DNA from: a plasmid | DNA length: 64,000 nt | Assembly: GCF_988243305.1 (NCBI RefSeq) | Contig: NZ_OZ547138.1 | Reading direction: 5' to 3' (one strand) | Shown here: positions 4,828 to 23,001 of the stretch, piece by piece | Layout: the number at the start of each line of letters is the position of its first letter | Numbering within the stretch: position 1 is the first letter of the stretch | The notes under the pieces: generated by a model | The model's input: only the letters and a program-made list of their open reading frames with translations | What the model was told of the DNA's origin: nothing | The model's database searches: none | Made by a program: the position numbers and the translations under genes

Positions 4828-5511
4828 ATGTCCCGTTTTGTCCTCGGTAACTGCATCGATGTTATGGCCCGTATTCCTGATAACGCCATTGATTTCATAC
4901 TGACTGACCCGCCGTACCTCGTCGGTTTTCGTGACCGTTTCGGGCGCACCATCGCTGGCGATAAAACCGATGAATGGCTGCAACCGGCCTGTAATGAAAT
5001 GTACCGCGTACTCAAAAAAGACGCGCTGATGGTGAGCTTCTACGGCTGGAACCGCGTCGATCGCTTTATGGCCGCCTGGAAAAATGCGGGATTCAGCGTT
5101 GTTGGTCACCTGGTCTTCACCAAAAACTACACATCGAAGGCCGCATATGTGGGCTATCGCCACGAATGCGCCTACATCCTGGCAAAAGGCCGTCCACGTC
5201 TGCCACAAAACCCGCTGCCGGACGTGCTGGGCTGGAAATATTCGGGCAATCGTCATCACCCGACGGAAAAGCCCGTTACCAGCCTGCAACCGCTGATTGA
5301 GAGCTTCACACACCCGAACGCAATTGTGCTGGACCCGTTTGCAGGCAGCGGCTCAACCTGCGTCGCTGCCCTCCAGTCCGGACGCCGGTATATCGGTATC
5401 GAGCTGCTTGAGCAGTATCACCGTGCCGGGCAGCAACGCCTTGCCGCCGTGCAACGGGCCATGCAGCAGGGGGCCGCGAATGATGACTGGTTTATGCCGG
5501 AGGCTGCGTAA
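4828..5511 (+). CDS. Orphan N6-adenine DNA methyltransferase (beta-class, DPPY motif)
   Basis: Motif LTDPPYL near the N-terminus and FAGSGST near the C-terminus; no adjacent restriction endonuclease gene. Confidence 0.8.
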   Translation: MSRFVLGNCIDVMARIPDNAIDFILTDPPYLVGFRDRFGRTIAGDKTDEWLQPACNEMYRVLKKDALMVSFYGWNRVDRFMAAWKNAGFSVVGHLVFTKNYTSKAAYVGYRHECAYILAKGRPRLPQNPLPDVLGWKYSGNRHHPTEKPVTSLQPLIESFTHPNAIVLDPFAGSGSTCVAALQSGRRYIGIELLEQYHRAGQQRLAAVQRAMQQGAANDDWFMPEAA

Positions 5512-7051: not shown

Positions 7052-7390
7052 GGATGTCGCCGCAGGCTCCGCTTTACCCGGCCATGCGGGGCATGGCCTT
7101 GTGGGTTTTCAGTTATGTGGCCTCAGCGTCGTGTGCGGGCTGTGCCGTGCCTCCATCGTAGCCGGGCTTCTGCGGGCGGGTTGCAAGGTAAGGTGAACCG
7201 CTGCGGTCACCCGGTCCCTCCTTCCCGTCTGCCGTGATTTTCCGGTCGTTCACCCGCTCAGATTTCGCGGTCTCACCCTCCAACTCCCGTCAGCCGTGCG
7301 CGTCAGGCTGCGGCTTCCCTTGCGCCCTTGCAACCCTGCAGGTCCGGCAAAGATGGAGGCACGGCACCGCCCGGTGTCGCGGAATATGTG
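7052..7390. repeat. Structured GC-rich repeat, family A copy 1 (ssi/Frpo-like candidate single-strand promoter) upstream of klcA
   Basis: About 340 bp near-identical to 14001-14340; both end just upstream of an antirestriction gene start. Confidence 0.6.
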
Positions 7391-7408: not shown

Positions 7409-7834
7409 ATGCAGTATGCGAAACCTGTCACTCTGAACGTTGAAGAGTGCGACCGTCTGTCTTTTCTGCCTTACCTGTTTGGCCTGGATTTTCTGTATGC
7501 CGAAGCGTCTGTATACGCGCTGGCGAAAAAAATGATGCCGGAATATGAAGGCGGATTCTGGCACTTCATCCGCCTGCCGGACGGTGGCGGTTACATGATG
7601 CCGGATGGCGACCGTTTTCATCTGGTCAACGGTGAAAACTGGTTTGACCGTACCGTGAGTGCTGATGCCGCAGGCATCATTTTGACTTCCCTTGTGATTA
7701 ACCGCCAGTTGTGGCTGTACCACGACAGCGGGGATGCAGGGTTGACACACCTGTACAGGATGCGCGATGCGCAGTTGTGGAGCCACATCGAATTTCACCC
7801 CGAATGCAACGCGATTTACGCGGCACTTGACTGA
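7409..7834 (+). CDS. klcA: KlcA/ArdB-family antirestriction protein
   Basis: Internal start MQYAKPVTLNVEECDRLSFLPY with GGAGG RBS gives 141 aa typical of KlcA. Confidence 0.8.
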   Translation: MQYAKPVTLNVEECDRLSFLPYLFGLDFLYAEASVYALAKKMMPEYEGGFWHFIRLPDGGGYMMPDGDRFHLVNGENWFDRTVSADAAGIILTSLVINRQLWLYHDSGDAGLTHLYRMRDAQLWSHIEFHPECNAIYAALD

Positions 7835-8693: not shown

Positions 8694-9200
8694 ACTTCGG
8701 CTCCCGGCTGCCTGGCGGCATCCGGTCGTCAGGCCCGACTCCGACGGGCAGCTGCTGGCGCACCCGCCAGTCTCCGCCGAACCCGCTGGCGCGGTTTCGG
8801 GCTGCCGCTACGGTCCGATGCGTGAAAACCCGGCTTGCAGCGACCGTTCCGGTCGCGCCGCCCCTGTCGCGCCGTGACCTGCGCTCCCTGCACACCTGAC
8901 GGTGTGTGAGGAAACTGCGCCTGATGGCGCAGCAGTCCTCCCTCCTGCCGCCACTCCTGCGGCCTGTTTCCCGCTGTGGACTTTCCGGGGGGCAGACGTA
9001 ACCCCCTCCCGTTCCATCTGTCCAGGGTGAGATGCACCGGCCACAAAATTTTTAGCCATGAACCCGGCAAAAAATTTTGCGTCCGCCCCCGGACAGCTGC
9101 CCCGTGAGGCGGTAAACGGGCCCCCATCGGAAAGGTCCACTGCGGGGAGAAAACCCTGTGAAGTGGACGGCAGGAGGAGCTTTCGCTCCTCTGAAGGGGC
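8694..9200. repeat. Structured GC-rich repeat, family B copy 1 (ssi/Frpo-like) upstream of ssb
   Basis: About 500 bp homologous to 15041-15545 and, in part, 18071-18395. Confidence 0.6.
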
Positions 9201-14000: not shown

Positions 14001-14340
14001 GAAGTCGCCGGCGGCTCCGCTTTTACCCGGCCATGCGGGGCATGGCCTTGTGGGTTTTCAGTTATGTGGCCGCCGTGTCGTGTGCGGGCTGTGCCGTGCC
14101 TCCATCGTAGCCGGGCTTCTGCGGGCGGGATGCAAGGTAAGATGAACCGCTGCGGTCACCCGGTCCCTCCTTCCCGTCTGCCGTGATTTTCCGGTCGTTC
14201 ACCCGCTCAGATTTCGCGGTCTCACCCTCCAACTCCCGTCAGCCGTGCGCGTCGGGCTGCGGCTTTCCTTGCGCCCTTGCATCCCTGCAGGCCCGGCAAA
14301 GATGGAGGCACGGCACCGCCCGGTGTCGCAGAACATGTGA
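14001..14340. repeat. Structured GC-rich repeat, family A copy 2 (ssi/Frpo-like) upstream of ardA
   Basis: Near-identical to 7052-7390. Confidence 0.6.
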
Positions 14341-14357: not shown

Positions 14358-14858
14358 ATGTCTGTTGTTGCACCTGCTGTATACGTTGGAACCTGGCACA
14401 AATACAACTGTGGAAGCATCGCCGGACGCTGGTTTGACCTGACCACGTTTGATGATGAGCGCGACTTTTTCGCCGCCTGCCGTGCTCTTCACCAGGATGA
14501 AGCCGATCCTGAACTGATGTTTCAGGATTATGAGGGATTCCCGGGGAATATGGCCTCTGAATGTCATATCAACTGGGCCTGGGTTGAAGGCTTCCGCCGG
14601 GCACGGGATGAAGGCTGCGAAGAGGCTTATCGTCTCTGGGTGGATGATACCGGTGAGACGGATTTTGACAGCTTCCGCGATGCCTGGTGGGGCGAGGCTG
14701 ACAGTGAGGAGGCTTTTGCGGTTGAGTTCGCCAGTGATACCGGCCTGCTGGCTGACGTGCCGGAGACGGTGGCGCTCTATTTTGACTATGAGGCGTATGC
14801 GCGGGATTTATTCCTGGACTCCTTCACCTTTATTGACGGTCATGTGTTCCGTCGGTGA
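14358..14858 (+). CDS. ardA: ArdA antirestriction protein (DNA mimic, anti type I R-M)
   Basis: Internal start MSVVAPAVYVGTWHKYNCGSIAGRWFDL gives 166 aa, highly acidic; about 5 kb from oriT as in IncI1. Confidence 0.9.
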   Translation: MSVVAPAVYVGTWHKYNCGSIAGRWFDLTTFDDERDFFAACRALHQDEADPELMFQDYEGFPGNMASECHINWAWVEGFRRARDEGCEEAYRLWVDDTGETDFDSFRDAWWGEADSEEAFAVEFASDTGLLADVPETVALYFDYEAYARDLFLDSFTFIDGHVFRR

Positions 14859-15040
14859 TTTACTCCCCCGCTCCGGCGGGGGTATGGCCTGCCAGGCCGC
14901 CGGAAAACCCTGGCAGGCTTACGCCTGCCTGAAATGCAGGAGGGCCGCGCCTGCGGCGCTGCCCTTCCTGCCCGTCATGGTGTGAGGCATTTTTCTGTTA
15001 TGTCGTTTCTGTTGTTCTGATTTCCGGAGGCGGGGACACC

Positions 15041-15545
15041 TTCGGCTCCCGGCTGCCTGGCGGCATCCGGTCGTCAGGCCCGACTCCGACAGGCAGCTGC
15101 TGGCGCACCCGCCAGTCTCCGCCGAACCCGCTGGCGCGGTTTCGGGCTGCCGCTACGGTCCGATGTCTGAAAAACCAGGCTTGCAGCGACCGTTCCGGTC
15201 GCGCCGCCTCTGTCGCGCCGTGACCTGCGCTCCCTGCACACCTGACGGTGTGTAAGGAAACTGCGCCTGATGGCGCAGTTGTCTGCCCTTCCGCCGCCAC
15301 CCCTGCGGCCTGTTTCCCGCTGTGGACTTTCCGGGGGCTGAAGCGGCCACAACACGTGTCAGCCGTCCAGGGGGGAGATGTACCAGCCACAAAACTTTTT
15401 GCCGCAAGCGTCAAAAACTTTTGCGTCTGCCCCCGGACAACTGCCCCGTGCCGTGGCTGTCGCTGCCCCATCGGAAAGGTCCACTGCGGGGAGAAACCCC
15501 GAAGAAGTGGACGGCAGAAGGGGCTTTCGCCCCTCCGGGGGAGCA
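15041..15545. repeat. Structured GC-rich repeat, family B copy 2 (ssi/Frpo-like)
   Basis: Homologous to 8694-9200. Confidence 0.6.
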
Positions 15546-17614: not shown

Positions 17615-17866
17615 TCACACATCCTCTGCCGTTTCCCCCAGTTCATTTTCCAGACGCCTGATGATATCTGCCTTACGCATCCCCTGCATGTGAGGCAGCA
17701 GGTCACGGACTGAAAGAGCCTGGGTGGTCCTCCAGACGGTGACGTCCACCTGTTCCGCATTTTCCCAGGCGTGCCATGTTCTCTGCGTCACGCCAAATTC
17801 TCTGGCCGCTTTTTCGCGTGACCAGAGCATGCTTTTTCGCCAGATTCGCAGTTCCCAGTCGGTCAT
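17615..17866 (-). CDS. Small HTH (XRE-like) DNA-binding protein
   Basis: 83 aa; segment LWSREKAAREFGVTQRTWHAWE resembles an HTH; palindromic operators in its upstream region. Confidence 0.5.
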   Translation of the reverse strand: MTDWELRIWRKSMLWSREKAAREFGVTQRTWHAWENAEQVDVTVWRTTQALSVRDLLPHMQGMRKADIIRRLENELGETAEDV

Positions 17867-17880
17867 AAAATACCTTTGAA

Positions 17881-17968
17881 AAAGTGAAAAAACTTCACTT
17901 TATTTTATCACCATAATCACCAAATCAGCGCGAAAAATAAGTGTGAAAAAGTGAAGAAATTTCACTTT
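17881..17968. promoter_or_regulatory. Two palindromic operator-like sites AAAGTGAA-N5-TTCACTTT (17881-17901 and 17948-17968)
   Basis: Two near-identical 21-bp palindromes 67 bp apart in an AT-rich intergenic region upstream of the HTH gene. Confidence 0.4.
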
Positions 17969-18070
17969 TTTTAATTGCAGATGTCGTGCTGTTTTCTCTG
18001 TTTTCACCTGTGCGGGAGTGGTGTGCCAGTGACCACCACATGCCATTGTTGTGCCGTCGTTTTTCTTCAG

Positions 18071-18395
18071 TCGCGCCGGATGCGGCGCTCCCTGCACACC
18101 TGACGGTGTGTAAGGCCACTGCGCCTGATGGCGCAGCTGTCTCTGCCTGTCTGCCGCCGCACTGCGGCCTGTTCTCCGCAGACGGACTTTCCGGGGGAAC
18201 ATACACGACCACATCCCGTTTCAGTTATCCAGGGGAGAGATGTACCAGCCACAAAACTTTTTGCCGCAGGCGTCAAAAACTTTTGCGTCTGCCCCCGGAC
18301 AACTGCCCCGTGACGTGGTGAGCATCCCCCGTCGGAAAGGTCCACTGCGGGGAAATCCCCGAAGACCCGGACGGCAGAAGGAGCTTCGCTCCTCC
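18071..18395. repeat. Structured GC-rich repeat, family B copy 3 (partial; ssi/Frpo-like)
   Basis: Homologous to the right-hand 330 bp of 8694-9200 and 15041-15545. Confidence 0.55.
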
Positions 18396-18442
18396 GGGAA
18401 ATGACCTGGCTGACCCGGCAGTCGTGACGATGAGGAGACAAT

Positions 18443-19294
18443 GTGATGAATCAGACTTTACCCACTGCTGACCTGAATACTGCCGGCACGACAGATATTA
18501 TTCCGTCTGTGGCCATCGACCGCATTATCGCGCAGCGTAACGAAGGTATTGCACTGTTCATGCAGGCGATGGAATGCCTGGCGACAGCACGCAGGATTCT
18601 GCTCGATGCTTCTGGTGACATTTTTCTCTACGGGTTTGAAGACTGCGTGACTGACTCTGTTCGATGCATGGATAAACCGGAAGAAGCAAAAAAGAATATC
18701 ACCCGTCTTGCCGACCGTAAAATCTGGGACCGCCTGATGGCGGATACGGGGATGTACACCTTCATGAGTTCATGCCAGCGTGATGAGTGGAACAGCCAGC
18801 TGATGAGCGACACCTGTCCTGAAATCACCCTGGACAATGTGCTGGCAACTTTTCGCCATCTGAATGCCAGCAAGATGCAGACATTTGAACAGAGACTGAT
18901 TGATGTCTACCGGAAATTGTCATGGGATTACAGAACCAATAATCCCTGCCGTCTGGGCAAGAAAATCATTATTGAAAACCTGCTGTACCGCTGGAGTAAC
19001 GGGCGTGTGACGCTGGACTGCAGCGGACGGGAGGCACTGGATGACCTGGTACGTCCGTTTTATCTGCTGGAGGGACGCAACGTTCCTGACTTCAGGAACA
19101 GCATCGGGGCGCAGTATGGTGAATATCTCGGGAACGGCGATAATGTCGGTAAGCTGTTAGAAGGGGAATATTTTACGGTGCGTGGCTACCAGAAAGGGAC
19201 CGTACACATTGTCTTTAAGCGTCCTGACCTTGTTGAAAAACTGAATGATATTATTGCACGGCATTATCCTGGTGCATTGCCGCCACGAGTCTGA
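18443..19294 (+). CDS. Hypothetical protein directly downstream of an ssi-like element
   Basis: 283-aa ORF with GAGGAG RBS, followed by a terminator. Confidence 0.5.
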   Translation: MMNQTLPTADLNTAGTTDIIPSVAIDRIIAQRNEGIALFMQAMECLATARRILLDASGDIFLYGFEDCVTDSVRCMDKPEEAKKNITRLADRKIWDRLMADTGMYTFMSSCQRDEWNSQLMSDTCPEITLDNVLATFRHLNASKMQTFEQRLIDVYRKLSWDYRTNNPCRLGKKIIIENLLYRWSNGRVTLDCSGREALDDLVRPFYLLEGRNVPDFRNSIGAQYGEYLGNGDNVGKLLEGEYFTVRGYQKGTVHIVFKRPDLVEKLNDIIARHYPGALPPRV

Positions 19295-19304
19295 TTAAAC
19301 AGAA

Positions 19305-19336
19305 AAGCCCTGGTATTTATGCCGGGGCTTTTTTTC
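19305..19336 (+). terminator. Rho-independent terminator candidate
   Basis: Imperfect hairpin AGCCCTGG...CCGGGGCT followed by TTTTTTT. Confidence 0.5.
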
Positions 19337-19378: not shown

Positions 19379-19714
19379 TCAATTGTTGTTCATATCGATG
19401 CCATCTTTCCTGCCTGAATCTGTCTTTTTAGGTGCTGTTTTAGAGGAAGAACGGCGGGATGGTTTTTTCGATTCTGCTTCCCGAATAATGTCGCGAAGTG
19501 CTTTCTCTCCTACTTCATACCCTGCATTTTTGAGCGTGTCACGAACATCTGCCAGTGTATAACCCTTTGTCCTTACCAGGACAATGATGTCATCACGAAT
19601 GGCATCAAGAAAATCACGCAATGTTTTCCGTTGAGCGGTGAGGTCCGGCAATTCCGATAAGGCAGCTTTTGCCAGCTGGATGTCATCATCTGAGTAAAAT
19701 TTTTTAGAAGCCAT
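19379..19714 (-). CDS. Hypothetical protein with basic Ser/Lys-rich C-terminal tail, divergent from nikA next to oriT
   Basis: ATG 19714 (MASKKFYSDDDIQ) with GAGAGA RBS; 111 aa. Confidence 0.45.
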   Translation of the reverse strand: MASKKFYSDDDIQLAKAALSELPDLTAQRKTLRDFLDAIRDDIIVLVRTKGYTLADVRDTLKNAGYEVGEKALRDIIREAESKKPSRRSSSKTAPKKTDSGRKDGIDMNNN

Positions 19715-19769: not shown

Positions 19770-19935
19770 CTGGCAGGGCTGCGCCCTGCCTCTGCCGTCT
19801 GCATAAGACTATGATGCACAAAAATAACAGGCTATAATTGACCGAAAAACGGGACAGGATGTGGGAATGTCGGACCGCGCACGCGCACTCAGACATTCCC
19901 CACCTGGTCAGGGCTTTGCCCCGACACCCCGGTAA
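19770..19935 (-). other. oriT: Origin of transfer (oriT) region with inverted repeats; nick predicted on the minus strand
   Basis: Intergenic region immediately upstream of nikA-nikB; inverted repeats GGCAGGGC-tgc-GCCCTGCC (19783-19801) and GGAATGTC...GACATTCC (19864-19900); sequence resembles my recollection of the R64 nick region. Confidence 0.5.
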
Positions 19936-19945
19936 GGAGCAGACC

Positions 19946-20278
19946 ATGAGTGAGAAGAAAACCCGAACGGGCAGTGAGAACAGGAAGAGAATTGTAAAAT
20001 TCACGGCGAGATTCACGGAGGATGAGGCTGAAATCGTAAGAGAAAAAGCGGAGTCAAGTGGACAGACGGTTTCAACATTTATACGAAGTTCTTCACTGGA
20101 TAAGGTGGTTAACTGCCGTACTGACGACCGTATGATTGATGAGATTATGCGTCTTGGCCGCCTTCAGAAGCATCTGTTTGTGGAGGGAAAACGCACTGGT
20201 GATAAGGAGTATGCAGAGGTTCTTGTTGCCATTACTGAATATGTCAATGCTCTGCGAAGAGACTTAATGGGACGCTGA
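19946..20278 (+). CDS. nikA: Relaxosome accessory protein NikA (RHH, oriT binding)
   Basis: 110 aa MSEKKTRTGSENRKRIVKFTARFTEDEAEIV with AAGGAG RBS; directly upstream of the relaxase. Confidence 0.9.
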   Translation: MSEKKTRTGSENRKRIVKFTARFTEDEAEIVREKAESSGQTVSTFIRSSSLDKVVNCRTDDRMIDEIMRLGRLQKHLFVEGKRTGDKEYAEVLVAITEYVNALRRDLMGR

Positions 20279-20289
20279 GATAACTGCTG

Positions 20290-23001
20290 ATGAATGCCAT
20301 TATTCCGCACAAAAGACGTGACGGCAGGTCTTCCTTTGAAGACCTGATTGCGTACACGTCTGTGCGGGATGATGTGCAGGAAAATGAGCTCACAGAAGAC
20401 AGCGAAATCAAGAGTGATGTCCCTCACCGCAACCGTTTCAGACGGCTTGTTGATTATGCAACACGCCTGCGTAACGAAAAATTTGTCTCCCTGATTGATG
20501 TGATGAAGGACGGCAGTCAGTGGGTAAATTTCTATGGCGTAACCTGTTTCCATAACTGCAATTCACTGGAAACAGCTGCTGAAGAGATGCAGTACAAGGC
20601 GGACAAAGCTGTTTTTTCCCGTAATGATACAGACCCCGTTTTCCACTACATTCTTTCCTGGCCTGCGCATGAAAGCCCGCGTCCTGAGCAGCTTTTTGAC
20701 TGTGTGCGTCACACACTGAAATCTCTTGAACTCTCAAAACATCAGTACGTGGCTGCCGTTCATACGGACACGGATAATCTGCATGTGCATGTTGCCGTGA
20801 ATCGTGTACATCCTGAAACTGGTTATATTAACTGGCTTTCCTGGAGCCAGGAAAAACTCAGCCGTGCATGTCGTGAACTTGAACTTAAGCACGGATTCGC
20901 GCCTGATAATGGCTGCTTTGTGCATGCACCCGGCAACCGTATTGTGCGCAAAACAGCGCTGGTACGTGAGCGCCGTAATGCCTGGCGACGCGGGAAAAAG
21001 CAGACGTTCAGGGAATATATTGCGCAGATGTCGATTGCCGGGCTGCGTGAAGAGCCCGCACAAGACTGGTTGTCTTTGCATAAACGGCTGGCCAGTGATG
21101 GTCTGTATATCACGATGCAGGAAGGGGAACTGGTGGTGAAGGATGGCTGGGACAGAGCGCGGGAAGGTGTTGCACTCAGTTCGTTCGGACCGTCATGGAC
21201 AGCTGAAAAACTGGGGCGGAAACTGGGGGAATATCAGCCTGTACCGACAGATATTTTCAGTCAGGTGGGGACACCCGGTCGTTATGATCCGGAAGCCATA
21301 AACGTTGATATCCGGCCGGAAAAAGTGGCAGAAACGGAGAGTCTGAAACAGTACGCCTGCCGTCATTTTGCCGAACGCTTACCGGAAATGGCGAGAAATG
21401 GTGAGCTGGAAAGTTGCCTGGATGTGCACAGAACTCTGGCAAAGGCTGGATTATGGATGGGGATCCAGCACGGGCATCTGGTACTGCATGATGGATTTGA
21501 TAAACAACAGACACCAGTACGTGCAGACAGTGTGTGGCCGTTAATGACGCTGGATTATATGCAGGATCTGGATGGTGGATGGCAGCCTGTACCGAAGGAT
21601 ATTTTTACTCAGGTTATACCCGGAGAACGATTCCGGGGACGTAATCTTGGTACTCAGGCTGTCAGTGATTACGAATGGTATCGTATTCGGATGGGGACAG
21701 GTCCACAGGGAGCAATAAAGCGCGAACTGTTTTCCGATAAGGAAAGTCTGTGGGGGTACACGACTGTTCAGTGTGAGTCGTTGATTGAAGATATGATCGC
21801 GGGCGGGAATTTCAGCTGGCAGGCGTGCCATGAGATGTTTGCGCGTAAAGGGCTTATGTTGCAGAAACAGCATCATGGTCTTGTGATTGTGGATGCGTTT
21901 AATCATGAGCTCACACCAGTGAAGGCCAGCAGTATCCACCCGGATTTGACGTTATCCAGGGCTGAGCCGCAGGCAGGGCCATTTGAGATTGCAGGTGCAG
22001 ATATATTTGAACGGGTGAAGCCTGAATGTCGCTACAATCCGGAACTTGCTGCCAGCGATGAAGTGGAGCTCGGCTTCCGGCGCGATCCTGTACTGCGTCG
22101 TGAACGCCGTGAAGCCCGTGCAGCTGCGCGGGAAGATTTGCGCGCGCGTTATCTTGCATGGAAGGAGCACTGGCGTAAACCCGACTTACGTTACGGAGAA
22201 CGGTTACGGGAAATTCATGCTGCCTGCCGTCGGCGCAAGGCGTATATCCGTGTGCAGTTCCGGGATCCACAATTGCGTAAGCTGCATTACCATATTGCAG
22301 AAGTGCAGCGTATGCAGGCGCTGATCAGGCTGAAGGAGAGTGTGAAGGAAGAGCGGTTGTCACTGATTGCGGAGGGTAAGTGGTATCCTTTGTCCTACCG
22401 GCAGTGGGTGGAGCAACAGGCGGTACAGGGAGACAGAGCTGCATTATCACAGTTACGTGGCTGGGATTATCGTGATCGTCGCAAAGACAAGCGACGAACA
22501 ACGAATGCCGACCGCTGCGTGATTCTCTGTGAACCGGGAGGAACTCCACTTTATGAAGACACTGGCGTTCTCGAAGCCCGTCTGCAGAAAGATGGCAGTG
22601 TGCGTTTTCGTGATCGGAGGAATGGCGAGTTAGTCTGTGTGGATTATGGGGACCGTGTGGTGTTCTACCATCATCAGGACAGAAATGAACTGGTGGATAA
22701 GCTGAATCTGATTGCTCCTGTATTGTTTGATCGTGAGCCAAGAATGGGTTTTGAACCGGAAGGCTCATATCAACAGTTTAATGATGTATTTGCGGAAATG
22801 GTGGCCTGGCATAATGCAGCTGGAATAACCGGAAGTGGACACTTTGTAATCAGCCGCCCGGATGTGGATTTACATCGTCAGCGTAGTGAACAGTACTACC
22901 ACGAATATATCAGGCAACAGAAAAGCATATCCGGGGGGCATGGCGCATCTTATGCTCCAGTTCAGGATAATGAGTGGACGCCACCATCACCTGGAATGTA
23001 G
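20290..23001 (+). CDS. nikB: MOBP-family relaxase NikB
   Basis: 903-aa ORF with relaxase histidine motif HVHVAVNRVHPETG; nikA-nikB organisation typical of IncI-complex plasmids. Confidence 0.9.
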   Translation: MNAIIPHKRRDGRSSFEDLIAYTSVRDDVQENELTEDSEIKSDVPHRNRFRRLVDYATRLRNEKFVSLIDVMKDGSQWVNFYGVTCFHNCNSLETAAEEMQYKADKAVFSRNDTDPVFHYILSWPAHESPRPEQLFDCVRHTLKSLELSKHQYVAAVHTDTDNLHVHVAVNRVHPETGYINWLSWSQEKLSRACRELELKHGFAPDNGCFVHAPGNRIVRKTALVRERRNAWRRGKKQTFREYIAQMSIAGLREEPAQDWLSLHKRLASDGLYITMQEGELVVKDGWDRAREGVALSSFGPSWTAEKLGRKLGEYQPVPTDIFSQVGTPGRYDPEAINVDIRPEKVAETESLKQYACRHFAERLPEMARNGELESCLDVHRTLAKAGLWMGIQHGHLVLHDGFDKQQTPVRADSVWPLMTLDYMQDLDGGWQPVPKDIFTQVIPGERFRGRNLGTQAVSDYEWYRIRMGTGPQGAIKRELFSDKESLWGYTTVQCESLIEDMIAGGNFSWQACHEMFARKGLMLQKQHHGLVIVDAFNHELTPVKASSIHPDLTLSRAEPQAGPFEIAGADIFERVKPECRYNPELAASDEVELGFRRDPVLRRERREARAAAREDLRARYLAWKEHWRKPDLRYGERLREIHAACRRRKAYIRVQFRDPQLRKLHYHIAEVQRMQALIRLKESVKEERLSLIAEGKWYPLSYRQWVEQQAVQGDRAALSQLRGWDYRDRRKDKRRTTNADRCVILCEPGGTPLYEDTGVLEARLQKDGSVRFRDRRNGELVCVDYGDRVVFYHHQDRNELVDKLNLIAPVLFDREPRMGFEPEGSYQQFNDVFAEMVAWHNAAGITGSGHFVISRPDVDLHRQRSEQYYHEYIRQQKSISGGHGASYAPVQDNEWTPPSPGM

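Follow-up and report, generated by a model that had tools for sequence, protein, structure and literature searches.

A DUF4942 gene beside oriT is the first gene readable from the entering strand of an I-complex plasmid and encodes a stand-alone protein to which the methyltransferase label does not apply

Which gene of a conjugative plasmid can be read first from the strand that enters the recipient, and what could its product do there? The question is raised by a 64,000-nucleotide stretch of plasmid DNA (contig NZ_OZ547138.1 of assembly GCF_988243305.1, hereafter the window), in which a first-pass annotation had drawn attention to an open reading frame at 18443-19294 on the plus strand. It described a 283-residue protein with no recognisable motif, encoded behind an ssi-like element and followed by its own terminator, and expected it, as the last leading-region gene before oriT, to be among the earliest genes expressed in the recipient. 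The gene order around this reading frame (ardA, a 144-aa ORF, an Rpn-family nuclease gene, a helix-turn-helix regulator gene on the minus strand, the gene under study, yggA on the minus strand, oriT, nikA and nikB) is that of the I-complex leading region. Among the cargo of the window are resistance genes such as mph(A). The genes and the transfer origin that matter for the argument are the following.

4828-5511: M.EcoGIX homologue, the only methylase on the matching plasmid described below
14358-14858, same strand as the DUF4942 gene: ardA (PF07275 match)
17615-17866, minus strand: divergent gene for an 83-aa helix-turn-helix regulator, Hp21 (weak Pfam matches, NCBI annotation)
18446-19294, plus strand: DUF4942 gene (open reading frame, NCBI annotation, PF13708, identity to R64, dN/dS, AlphaFold2)
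19379-19714, minus strand: yggA, Hp23 (ORF list, NCBI annotation; named in the pESBL table)
19849-19931, minus strand: oriT core with the nick-region motif (pESBL offset, identity to R64)
19946-20278: nikA
20290-23001: nikB

The open reading frame is present on the plus strand and comprises 283 codons when counted from GTG 18443, but its second codon is ATG 18446, from which the protein has 282 residues. The shorter form is most likely the correct one, with the GTG as an alternative start: the NCBI annotation of the Escherichia coli plasmid NZ_CP145695 begins the gene at the ATG ("DUF4942 domain-containing protein", 282 aa), and close homologues likewise have 282 residues. NZ_CP145695, a 126-kb plasmid typed as replicon IncI-gamma/K1, relaxase MOBP and mating-pair type MPF_I, is 100% identical to the window over 1.6 kb around the reading frame. 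The same 1.6-kb query matched 2036 plasmid records, 1903 of them conjugative. The protein matches the Pfam family DUF4942 (PF13708) with an E-value of 2e-50 and 171.5 bits against a cut-off of 25, the alignment spanning residues 91-276 of the protein and positions 5-189 of the 190 in the profile, and all 103 aligned homologues match the same profile. An exhaustive HMMER search collected 2071 clusters (50% identity) at E<=0.001, 194 of them at E<=1e-30. In comparison with the 78%-identical copy on a Salmonella IncI plasmid, where the neighbours are alike, dN/dS was 0.14 at a dS of about 1.0, so that the gene is under strong purifying selection. Together with the Pfam score and the homologue clusters, this value identifies the reading frame as a real gene and not a chance one. 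It is an I-complex member of the DUF4942 family and the orthologue of Hp22 (O3K_25947) of pESBL; the R64 protein (WP_001077047) is 97% identical over 282 residues. The description of the protein as lacking any recognisable motif therefore stands as far as catalytic motifs are concerned and falls for the family, which is readily recognised. The profile search did not assign the protein to a well-characterised non-defence family, DUF4942 not being a characterised family.

The oriT interval was located by the offset of the pESBL oriT coordinates relative to nikA. The region shares 91% identity with its R64 counterpart and conserves the segment GGGACAGGATGTG, the reverse complement of which, on the minus strand, is CACATCCTG/TCCCG (the slash stands for the nick). 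We take this motif to be the nick region of the IncI/IncP type and, from R64, place the nick between 19855 and 19854 on the minus strand; the position in R64 reportedly goes back to Furuya and Komano in 1991, a paper that PMC3817090 cites. This placement agrees with the pESBL oriT interval just upstream of nikA. The distance from the motif to the DUF4942 gene is 0.56 kb at the stop codon and 1.41 kb at the start codon, within the 1.5 kb that had been predicted. A nick at 19855/19854 means that the minus strand is transferred with its 5' end leading, in the direction of lower coordinates, and that it serves as the template for plus-strand genes. No other gene becomes readable from it before the DUF4942 gene. 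The DUF4942 gene is not the last gene before oriT in the literal sense, because the small gene yggA intervenes; what holds of the earlier description is that it is the last plus-strand, T-strand-templated one. The sense strand of yggA is the T-strand, and yggA can consequently not be transcribed before second-strand synthesis.

The window contains the following signals.

8864-9194: ssi3-type copy (matches Frpo3, 98.5%)
15210-15537: ssi2-type copy (matches Frpo2, 88%)
17883-17899 and 17950-17966, no strand: two perfect palindromes AGTGAA-N5-TTCACT, candidate operators for the helix-turn-helix protein
18068-18396, minus strand: class 1 single-strand DNA promoter/ssi element, orthologue of ssi1 (Frpo1) (homology, hairpin fold)
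18432-18437, plus strand: ribosome-binding site GAGGAG, 8 nt before ATG 18446 (read from the sequence)
19303-19335, plus strand: intrinsic terminator with an A-tract, a GC-rich stem (19307-19313 with 19322-19328) and a U7 tail (RNA fold)

The minus strand at 18068-18396 is identical to ColIb-P9 Frpo1/ssi1 at 323 of 329 positions (98.2%), the ColIb-P9 Frpo references being the sequences listed by Samuel et al. The ssi-like element that had been noticed upstream of the gene is therefore an ssi1 orthologue, one of three ssi copies in the window. Folded as single-stranded DNA, the minus strand at 17960-18445 reached -114.5 kcal/mol (z = -5.9). The element thus forms, like other class 1 elements, a long hairpin on the transferred strand, and it reads into the DUF4942 gene, an orientation given by the nick strand. 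A consensus hairpin common to the three copies retains 11 pairs despite changes on both sides and contains an unpaired GGTACATCTC bulge. This bulge may be the -10 region, as in Frpo; if so, the transcript would start approximately at 18295-18300. When the window is compared with the diverged Salmonella plasmid, the element is 85% identical, as against 77.5% for the coding sequence. A promoter scan of the duplex found no sigma-70-like promoter ahead of the gene on the plus strand, and neither the ssi element nor the terminator matched a family in Rfam.

The predicted terminator was also found. The hairpin at 19303-19335 folds with -26.1 kcal/mol (z = -5.98) and is followed by the U7 tail; the region folds on the minus strand too (z = -5.4), and in the Salmonella homologue the stem is kept while the loop is changed. 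A simple consensus scan had overlooked it. The DUF4942 gene is accordingly a single-gene unit between the ssi1/Frpo1 hairpin promoter and an intrinsic terminator.

The expectation of early expression gains support from the published work on the orthologous locus. RNA-seq and 5'-RACE of pESBL (IncI1) by Wen et al. (2025, PMC12672017) describe six leading-region operons that are induced up to ~500-fold at 15 min, each preceded by a hairpin and with its start site mapped; three of the six are driven by ssi1-3, termed "class 1", and show the highest transcription. In near-identical plasmids, ssi promoters are active in the recipient within minutes and silent once the DNA is double-stranded. The position of the gene behind ssi1, its template on the T-strand and the induction of the ssi1-3 operons of pESBL all point to early expression, and Hp22 itself is very probably induced early after transfer.

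The helix-turn-helix protein Hp21, encoded divergently, matches HTH_31 and HTH_3 in Pfam weakly, under the curated cut-offs; by size and position we place it, putatively, in family 22 of Samuel et al., whose members lie on the opposite strand at a median position of 2. The palindrome AGTGAA-N5-TTCACT occurs in the window four times with at most one mismatch, against 0.16 expected, the two exact occurrences being the pair upstream; both fall inside direct repeat D7. A conserved pairing of a helix-turn-helix gene with DUF4942 across elements was considered and rejected, since the helix-turn-helix proteins of the window, of a Burkholderia pseudomallei island and of pOXA-48 are unrelated. The other neighbour, yggA, has a homologue in pCTX-M3, Orf35, that represses nikA, nikB and traH (PMC6112013).

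The surroundings of the gene might suggest that its product serves the processing or regulation of plasmid DNA, in second-strand synthesis, in recircularisation or in the timing of the transfer genes near oriT. Membership of yggA in a family that represses nikAB/tra is in keeping with this, as is the additional ability of ssi elements to prime complementary-strand synthesis (PMC12672017; PMC7736820). A wider survey of homologues speaks on both sides. In a tblastn search of a plasmid collection, homologues were present in at least 5000 records; of the best-scoring 5000, 4588 are conjugative. In an F-like plasmid of Pantoea the order DUF4942, DUF5983, SLT on the minus strand, traM makes the gene oriT-adjacent on a MOBF backbone unrelated to that of the window, so that adjacency to oriT is seen on two unrelated backbones. 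On the IncL plasmid pOXA-48, however, the homologue is a leading-region gene accompanied by ssb, a KlcA-like gene and DUF1380 but lies ~6 kb from oriT, and others occur in chromosomal islands and in phages, which have no oriT. The gene is moreover dispensable for transfer and maintenance in a transposon screen (see below), and we consider a role in DNA processing unlikely. Further homologues were found on Klebsiella IncF-type and other large plasmids, among the transfer genes of an Acidovorax plasmid, and next to DUF932 and YqaJ genes in the Burkholderia pseudomallei island. No recurrent partner was found near the distant stand-alone homologues, whose contexts comprise DUF932, YqaJ, SNase, KfrB and transfer genes.

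For the function of the protein itself, the existing label is "methyltransferase", which would make it an orphan DNA methyltransferase that modifies the incoming DNA. The family goes by names such as Methyltransferase, Restriction methylase and Methyltransferase domain, the phage homologues are annotated as DNA methyltransferases, and in PHROGs the protein matched families of unknown function and one family of fused methylases (PHROG 6263, "DNA methyltransferase"). None of the hallmarks of such an enzyme were found in the DUF4942 protein. SAM-binding motif I (e.g. LEPSAGxG or DxFxGxG) is absent by regular-expression search and alignment and present in fused relatives; catalytic motif IV, (D/N/S)PP(Y/F/W), is absent as well, NPPF/NPPY occurring solely in the C-terminal domain of the fusions. 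No methyltransferase match was obtained in Pfam, the NCBIfam search was empty, and PADLOC returned a single insignificant match. The AlphaFold2 model (pLDDT 91.3, pTM 0.80) shows a helical N-terminal half with small beta-meanders and no Rossmann sheet, i.e. the seven-stranded alpha/beta fold was not found in it. The search of the PDB with this model, a check proposed in the first-pass annotation, yielded no structural relative and no methyltransferase among the matches, and nothing was retrieved from the PDB by single-sequence or profile searches. On the grounds of the missing motifs I and IV, Rossmann fold and Pfam match we rejected the methyltransferase assignment; the reading as an orphan methyltransferase is effectively refuted by the sequence and very improbable.

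The origin of the label lies in a minority of relatives of 440-580 residues that carry an additional C-terminal gamma-class domain (LEPSAGxG ... NPPF), weakly resembling M.TaqI and HemK. These fusions were found in metagenomic proteins (P0245/P0211) and in all three phages examined (Marinomonas P12026 gp32, Pseudomonas phiPSA1 gp22 and Salmonella SSU5_095); the best match among predicted viral structures was a 531-aa protein named "Type I restriction enzyme". The window protein aligns over its full length with the N-terminal ~270 residues of the fusions and stops exactly at the domain boundary (...YPGALPPRV). The "methyltransferase" family label thus traces to the fused relatives and ought not to be carried over to the plasmid proteins that stand alone. 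One might regard the gene as what is left of a fused methylase gene in decay, now functionless, given that relatives possess the catalytic domain that is missing here. A dN/dS of 0.14 at saturating dS contradicts this; the stand-alone form, furthermore, predominates in every homologue list obtained, with the fusions in the minority, and ribosome-binding site, promoter and terminator are intact, the promoter being better conserved than the coding sequence. Decay is the least credible explanation of the gene.

If the catalytic part were encoded separately, the protein might act in trans as a targeting or specificity partner of another methylase, M.EcoGIX or a host enzyme, and steer methylation to the entering strand. 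In favour of this, the module is attached in the fused relatives to a minimal methylase domain of 170 residues that lacks a recognition domain, and M.EcoGIX is likewise small and induced from a single-strand promoter and protects pESBL from EcoRI and EcoGIII. Searches by tblastn with seven fused proteins, however, matched only the DUF4942 region in the window and in the matching 126-kb plasmid, so that the idea of a split methylase whose other half is encoded elsewhere on the plasmid was rejected, and a gamma-class domain was equally absent beside the stand-alone homologues of Burkholderia, Acidovorax, IncL and IncF. The M.EcoGIX homologue belongs to the permuted beta class, in which DPPY precedes the SAM motif, and has no relationship to the gamma-class domain of the fusions; a link to it through homology of that domain was rejected because class and motif order differ. 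The module is also too uniformly conserved for a specificity-determining domain. The AlphaFold2 model of one fusion consists of two well-folded domains with a low-confidence linker (pTM 0.60), for which reason no interface between DUF4942 and methylase could be read from it. A targeting partner is, on balance, quite unlikely.

Conservation within the module raises the alternative that the protein is an enzyme of unknown chemistry. Among 103 sequences of 29-78% identity, W94, D200, H254 and N267 are invariant and D90, S159, N165, R203, D215 and R217 nearly so; the invariant residues are the same in the fused forms. The W/D/H/N cluster could form an active site acting on DNA, a nucleotide signal or a host protein, and a fold that has no relative in the PDB might be a new catalytic one. 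Against this, no catalytic family was matched in Pfam, NCBIfam, PADLOC or the PDB, and the conserved polar residues would suit a binding surface equally well, so that enzymatic activity appears improbable. The conserved polar residues D90, D200, D215, R217, H254 and N267 could still mark an active site, which would speak against a purely binding role.

DNA mimicry of the ArdA/Ocr type was rejected in view of the near-neutral charge; nor did the protein match the ArdA profile (PF07275), which the ArdA of the window does. The protein has a net charge of -2 and a pI of 6.0, the family median pI being 7.2; with this near-neutral pI it is neither a DNA mimic nor obviously DNA-binding.

Much of what is described here has been published. 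In Supplementary Table 1 of Samuel et al. (2024), the proteins form family 24 of the leading region, with 2171 members, a median position of 1 from oriT and T-strand orientation (strand +1), labelled "Uncharacterized; DUF4942; Methyltransferase" with the UniProt-derived names YdiA and YgfB. The gene of the window agrees with this class in location, being a leading-region gene for which the T-strand can serve as template. The same study compared family 24 with known anti-CRISPR and anti-restriction proteins by sequence and structure and obtained no match. In a transposon screen of pESBL, Hp22 was scored as non-essential (probability 1.00), both for maintenance and for transfer into E. coli K-12, and so were ArdA, KlcA and M.EcoGIX (PMC4288162). 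Our literature search on DUF4942 found no functional study of the family and none reporting inhibition of defence. With the observation almost wholly published, the gene is a known unknown rather than a discovery, albeit a well-defined one, since it is the first to be templated by the T-strand, has a promoter of the strong class, and is conserved and widespread. The present analysis adds that the methyltransferase label is inapplicable to the stand-alone protein. It also defines the split between stand-alone forms, in plasmid and island contexts, and fused forms, in the three phages examined. Further additions are the confidently predicted fold that has no relative in the PDB, the purifying selection, and the adjacency to oriT on two unrelated backbones.

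The reading that we favour, at a rough probability of 0.45, is that the DUF4942 protein is an early, non-catalytic establishment factor with a binding role against restriction-type defence. As others have shown for near-identical plasmids, transfer of the minus strand starts with its 5' end at the nick (~19855), and in this order the gene body arrives first and the promoter hairpin ~1.5-1.9 kb later. Host RNA polymerase uses the hairpin as a promoter only as long as the DNA is single-stranded, producing a burst of transcription within minutes that ends with the synthesis of the complementary strand. The product would be a stand-alone module of ~270 residues corresponding to the N-terminal part of NPPF/NPPY amino-methyltransferases, which are probably N6-adenine DNA methylases. 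Having no catalytic domain of its own, and with none elsewhere on the plasmid, it could not methylate; it would instead bind nucleic acid or a host factor and help the incoming plasmid to establish itself, most plausibly by blunting a restriction-type defence, as a conditional factor similar to ArdA, KlcA and M.EcoGIX. Two published observations run against an establishment or anti-defence role: insertions in Hp22 were neutral for maintenance and transfer into E. coli K-12, and the comparison by Samuel et al. with known anti-CRISPR and anti-restriction proteins gave no match. The more far-reaching proposal, a new anti-defence factor derived from a non-catalytic orphan-methylase module, which would work by binding or by a new enzymatic activity at the W/D/H/N site, is possible but rather doubtful. 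If it were true, the earliest protein to be expressed from the incoming strand in IncI and some F-like plasmids would neutralise a host defence; the possible targets would include methylase-containing restriction complexes (Type I, BREX) or their DNA sites and single-stranded DNA intermediates. I-complex plasmids (IncI1, IncI-gamma, IncK and IncB/O) and IncL plasmids (pOXA-48) are major carriers of ESBL and carbapenemase genes, and DUF4942 is one of the largest uncharacterised leading-region families, with homologues in plasmids, genomic islands and phages.

Comparison with known systems places the favoured establishment factor among familiar company. ArdA, KlcA/ArdB, PsiB and M.EcoGIX share with the DUF4942 protein the region, the strand, the logic of the single-strand promoter and the "non-essential" class in pESBL, but have no sequence or fold similarity to it; ArdA in particular is an acidic DNA mimic, unlike the nearly neutral DUF4942 protein. 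The orphan amino-methyltransferases of phages and mobile elements have the DUF4942 module at their N-terminus, with the invariant residues common to both, and differ by their C-terminal gamma-class Rossmann domain, which the window protein does not have. The F plasmid contains no DUF4942 copy; its last annotated plus-strand gene before oriT is a DUF932 gene, which fills the equivalent first-position slot, and a leading-region family of Samuel et al. with similar names (YubP, YgeB, PF06067) also has a median position of 1. The two proteins have no detectable homology, however, and a relationship between them was rejected (hhalign probability 0.1%). The promoter resembles ColIb-P9 ssi1-3 and F Frpo in its hairpin and in its orientation into a T-strand-templated gene, and at 98.2% identity to Frpo1 it shows no difference of note from ColIb-P9 ssi1. 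With F ssiD there is no more than a partial likeness, and the strongest local match (78% over ~150 nt) falls on the ssi2 copy at 15331-15480. Closest of all are the R64 protein and Hp22 of pESBL, whose genes have the same neighbours (the helix-turn-helix gene on the minus strand, ssi1, the gene itself, yggA on the minus strand, oriT, nikA and nikB); essentially nothing distinguishes the window copy from them: it is the same gene in a plasmid of the IncI-gamma/K type.

The ssi1 element, a ColIb-P9-type class 1 single-strand DNA promoter upstream of the DUF4942 gene, was compared with its counterpart on the diverged Salmonella IncI plasmid (window 18068-18443 against L018 3626-3998). The element is 85% identical, against 77.5% nucleotide identity for the adjoining coding sequence, and the non-coding ssi1 is thus more conserved than the neighbouring DUF4942 coding sequence. 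The downstream terminator has the same stem but a different loop in the two plasmids.

On the IncL plasmid pOXA-48, a 95-nt stretch upstream of the DUF4942 gene (L005 6438-6531, minus strand) matches the 3' part of "Frpo* 4", a candidate element of Samuel et al., at 82% identity, and the intergenic region before the gene has a T-strand fold z of -4.0. The IncL homologue may also lie behind a single-strand promoter. A further homologue, 56% identical, is found on a Pantoea plasmid with an F-like backbone (traM/traL):
L019 681-3603: DUF4942 gene, DUF5983 gene, SLT gene (opposite strand) and traM
Here too, oriT adjoins the DUF4942 gene, on an unrelated relaxase backbone. Among the 103 DUF4942 homologues of alignment A1, three also match Pfam kleA_kleC (best E 2.3e-05); kleA_kleC comprises KorC-regulated proteins of IncP plasmids.

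The region before ssi1 contains the following features:
17615-17866, minus strand: divergent HTH gene
17883-17899 and 17950-17966: perfect palindrome AGTGAA-N5-TTCACT, two copies between the HTH gene and ssi1
17900-18097, minus strand: hypothetical ORF of 65 aa (NCBI annotation)
A pattern scan of the window for this palindrome with at most one mismatch returned four occurrences, against 0.16 expected, and the two listed are the only exact copies among them. They are likely operators for the HTH regulator, which in size and position looks like the "Aca6-like" leading-region family of Samuel et al. (opposite strand, median position 2). The 65-aa ORF, which overlaps both the palindromes and ssi1 (3' end), is probably not a real gene.

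Two features were noted in yggA and nikB:
19379-19714, minus strand: yggA (Hp23)
21226-21266 and 21574-21614: internal repeat of nikB, 41 nt, 80% identical
The NCBI annotation name of Hp23 looks like a misnomer. Its homologue in pCTX-M3, Orf35, represses nikA, nikB and traH, and its deletion increased mobilisation more than 200-fold (PMC6112013). Since the T-strand is the sense strand of yggA, the gene can be expressed only after second-strand synthesis. At the protein level, the nikB repeat gives a peptide repeated outside the relaxase part of NikB (…YQPVPTDIFSQV… / …WQPVPKDIFTQV…).

The sole methyltransferase of the matching plasmid (NZ_CP145695) is a beta-class enzyme, in which DPPY precedes the SAM motif:
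4828-5511, plus strand: homologue of the ssDNA methylase M.EcoGIX, 227 aa

Over its left part, the ssi2 locus shares 94-97% identity with the ssi3 locus (window 15040-15337 against 8695-8991), yet the whole ssi2 element is just 88% identical to ColIb-P9 Frpo2, a sequence pattern that suggests recombination between ssi copies. In pO111-CRL115, 9.7 kb between two such repeats was lost (PMC3817090). Another repeat is present in the leading region:
7073-7372 and 14022-14321: direct repeat, 300 nt, 97% identical
Its copies, which stand upstream of a KlcA-like gene (7409-7834) and of ardA (14358-14858), fit the "class 2" single-strand promoters of pESBL, described in 2025.
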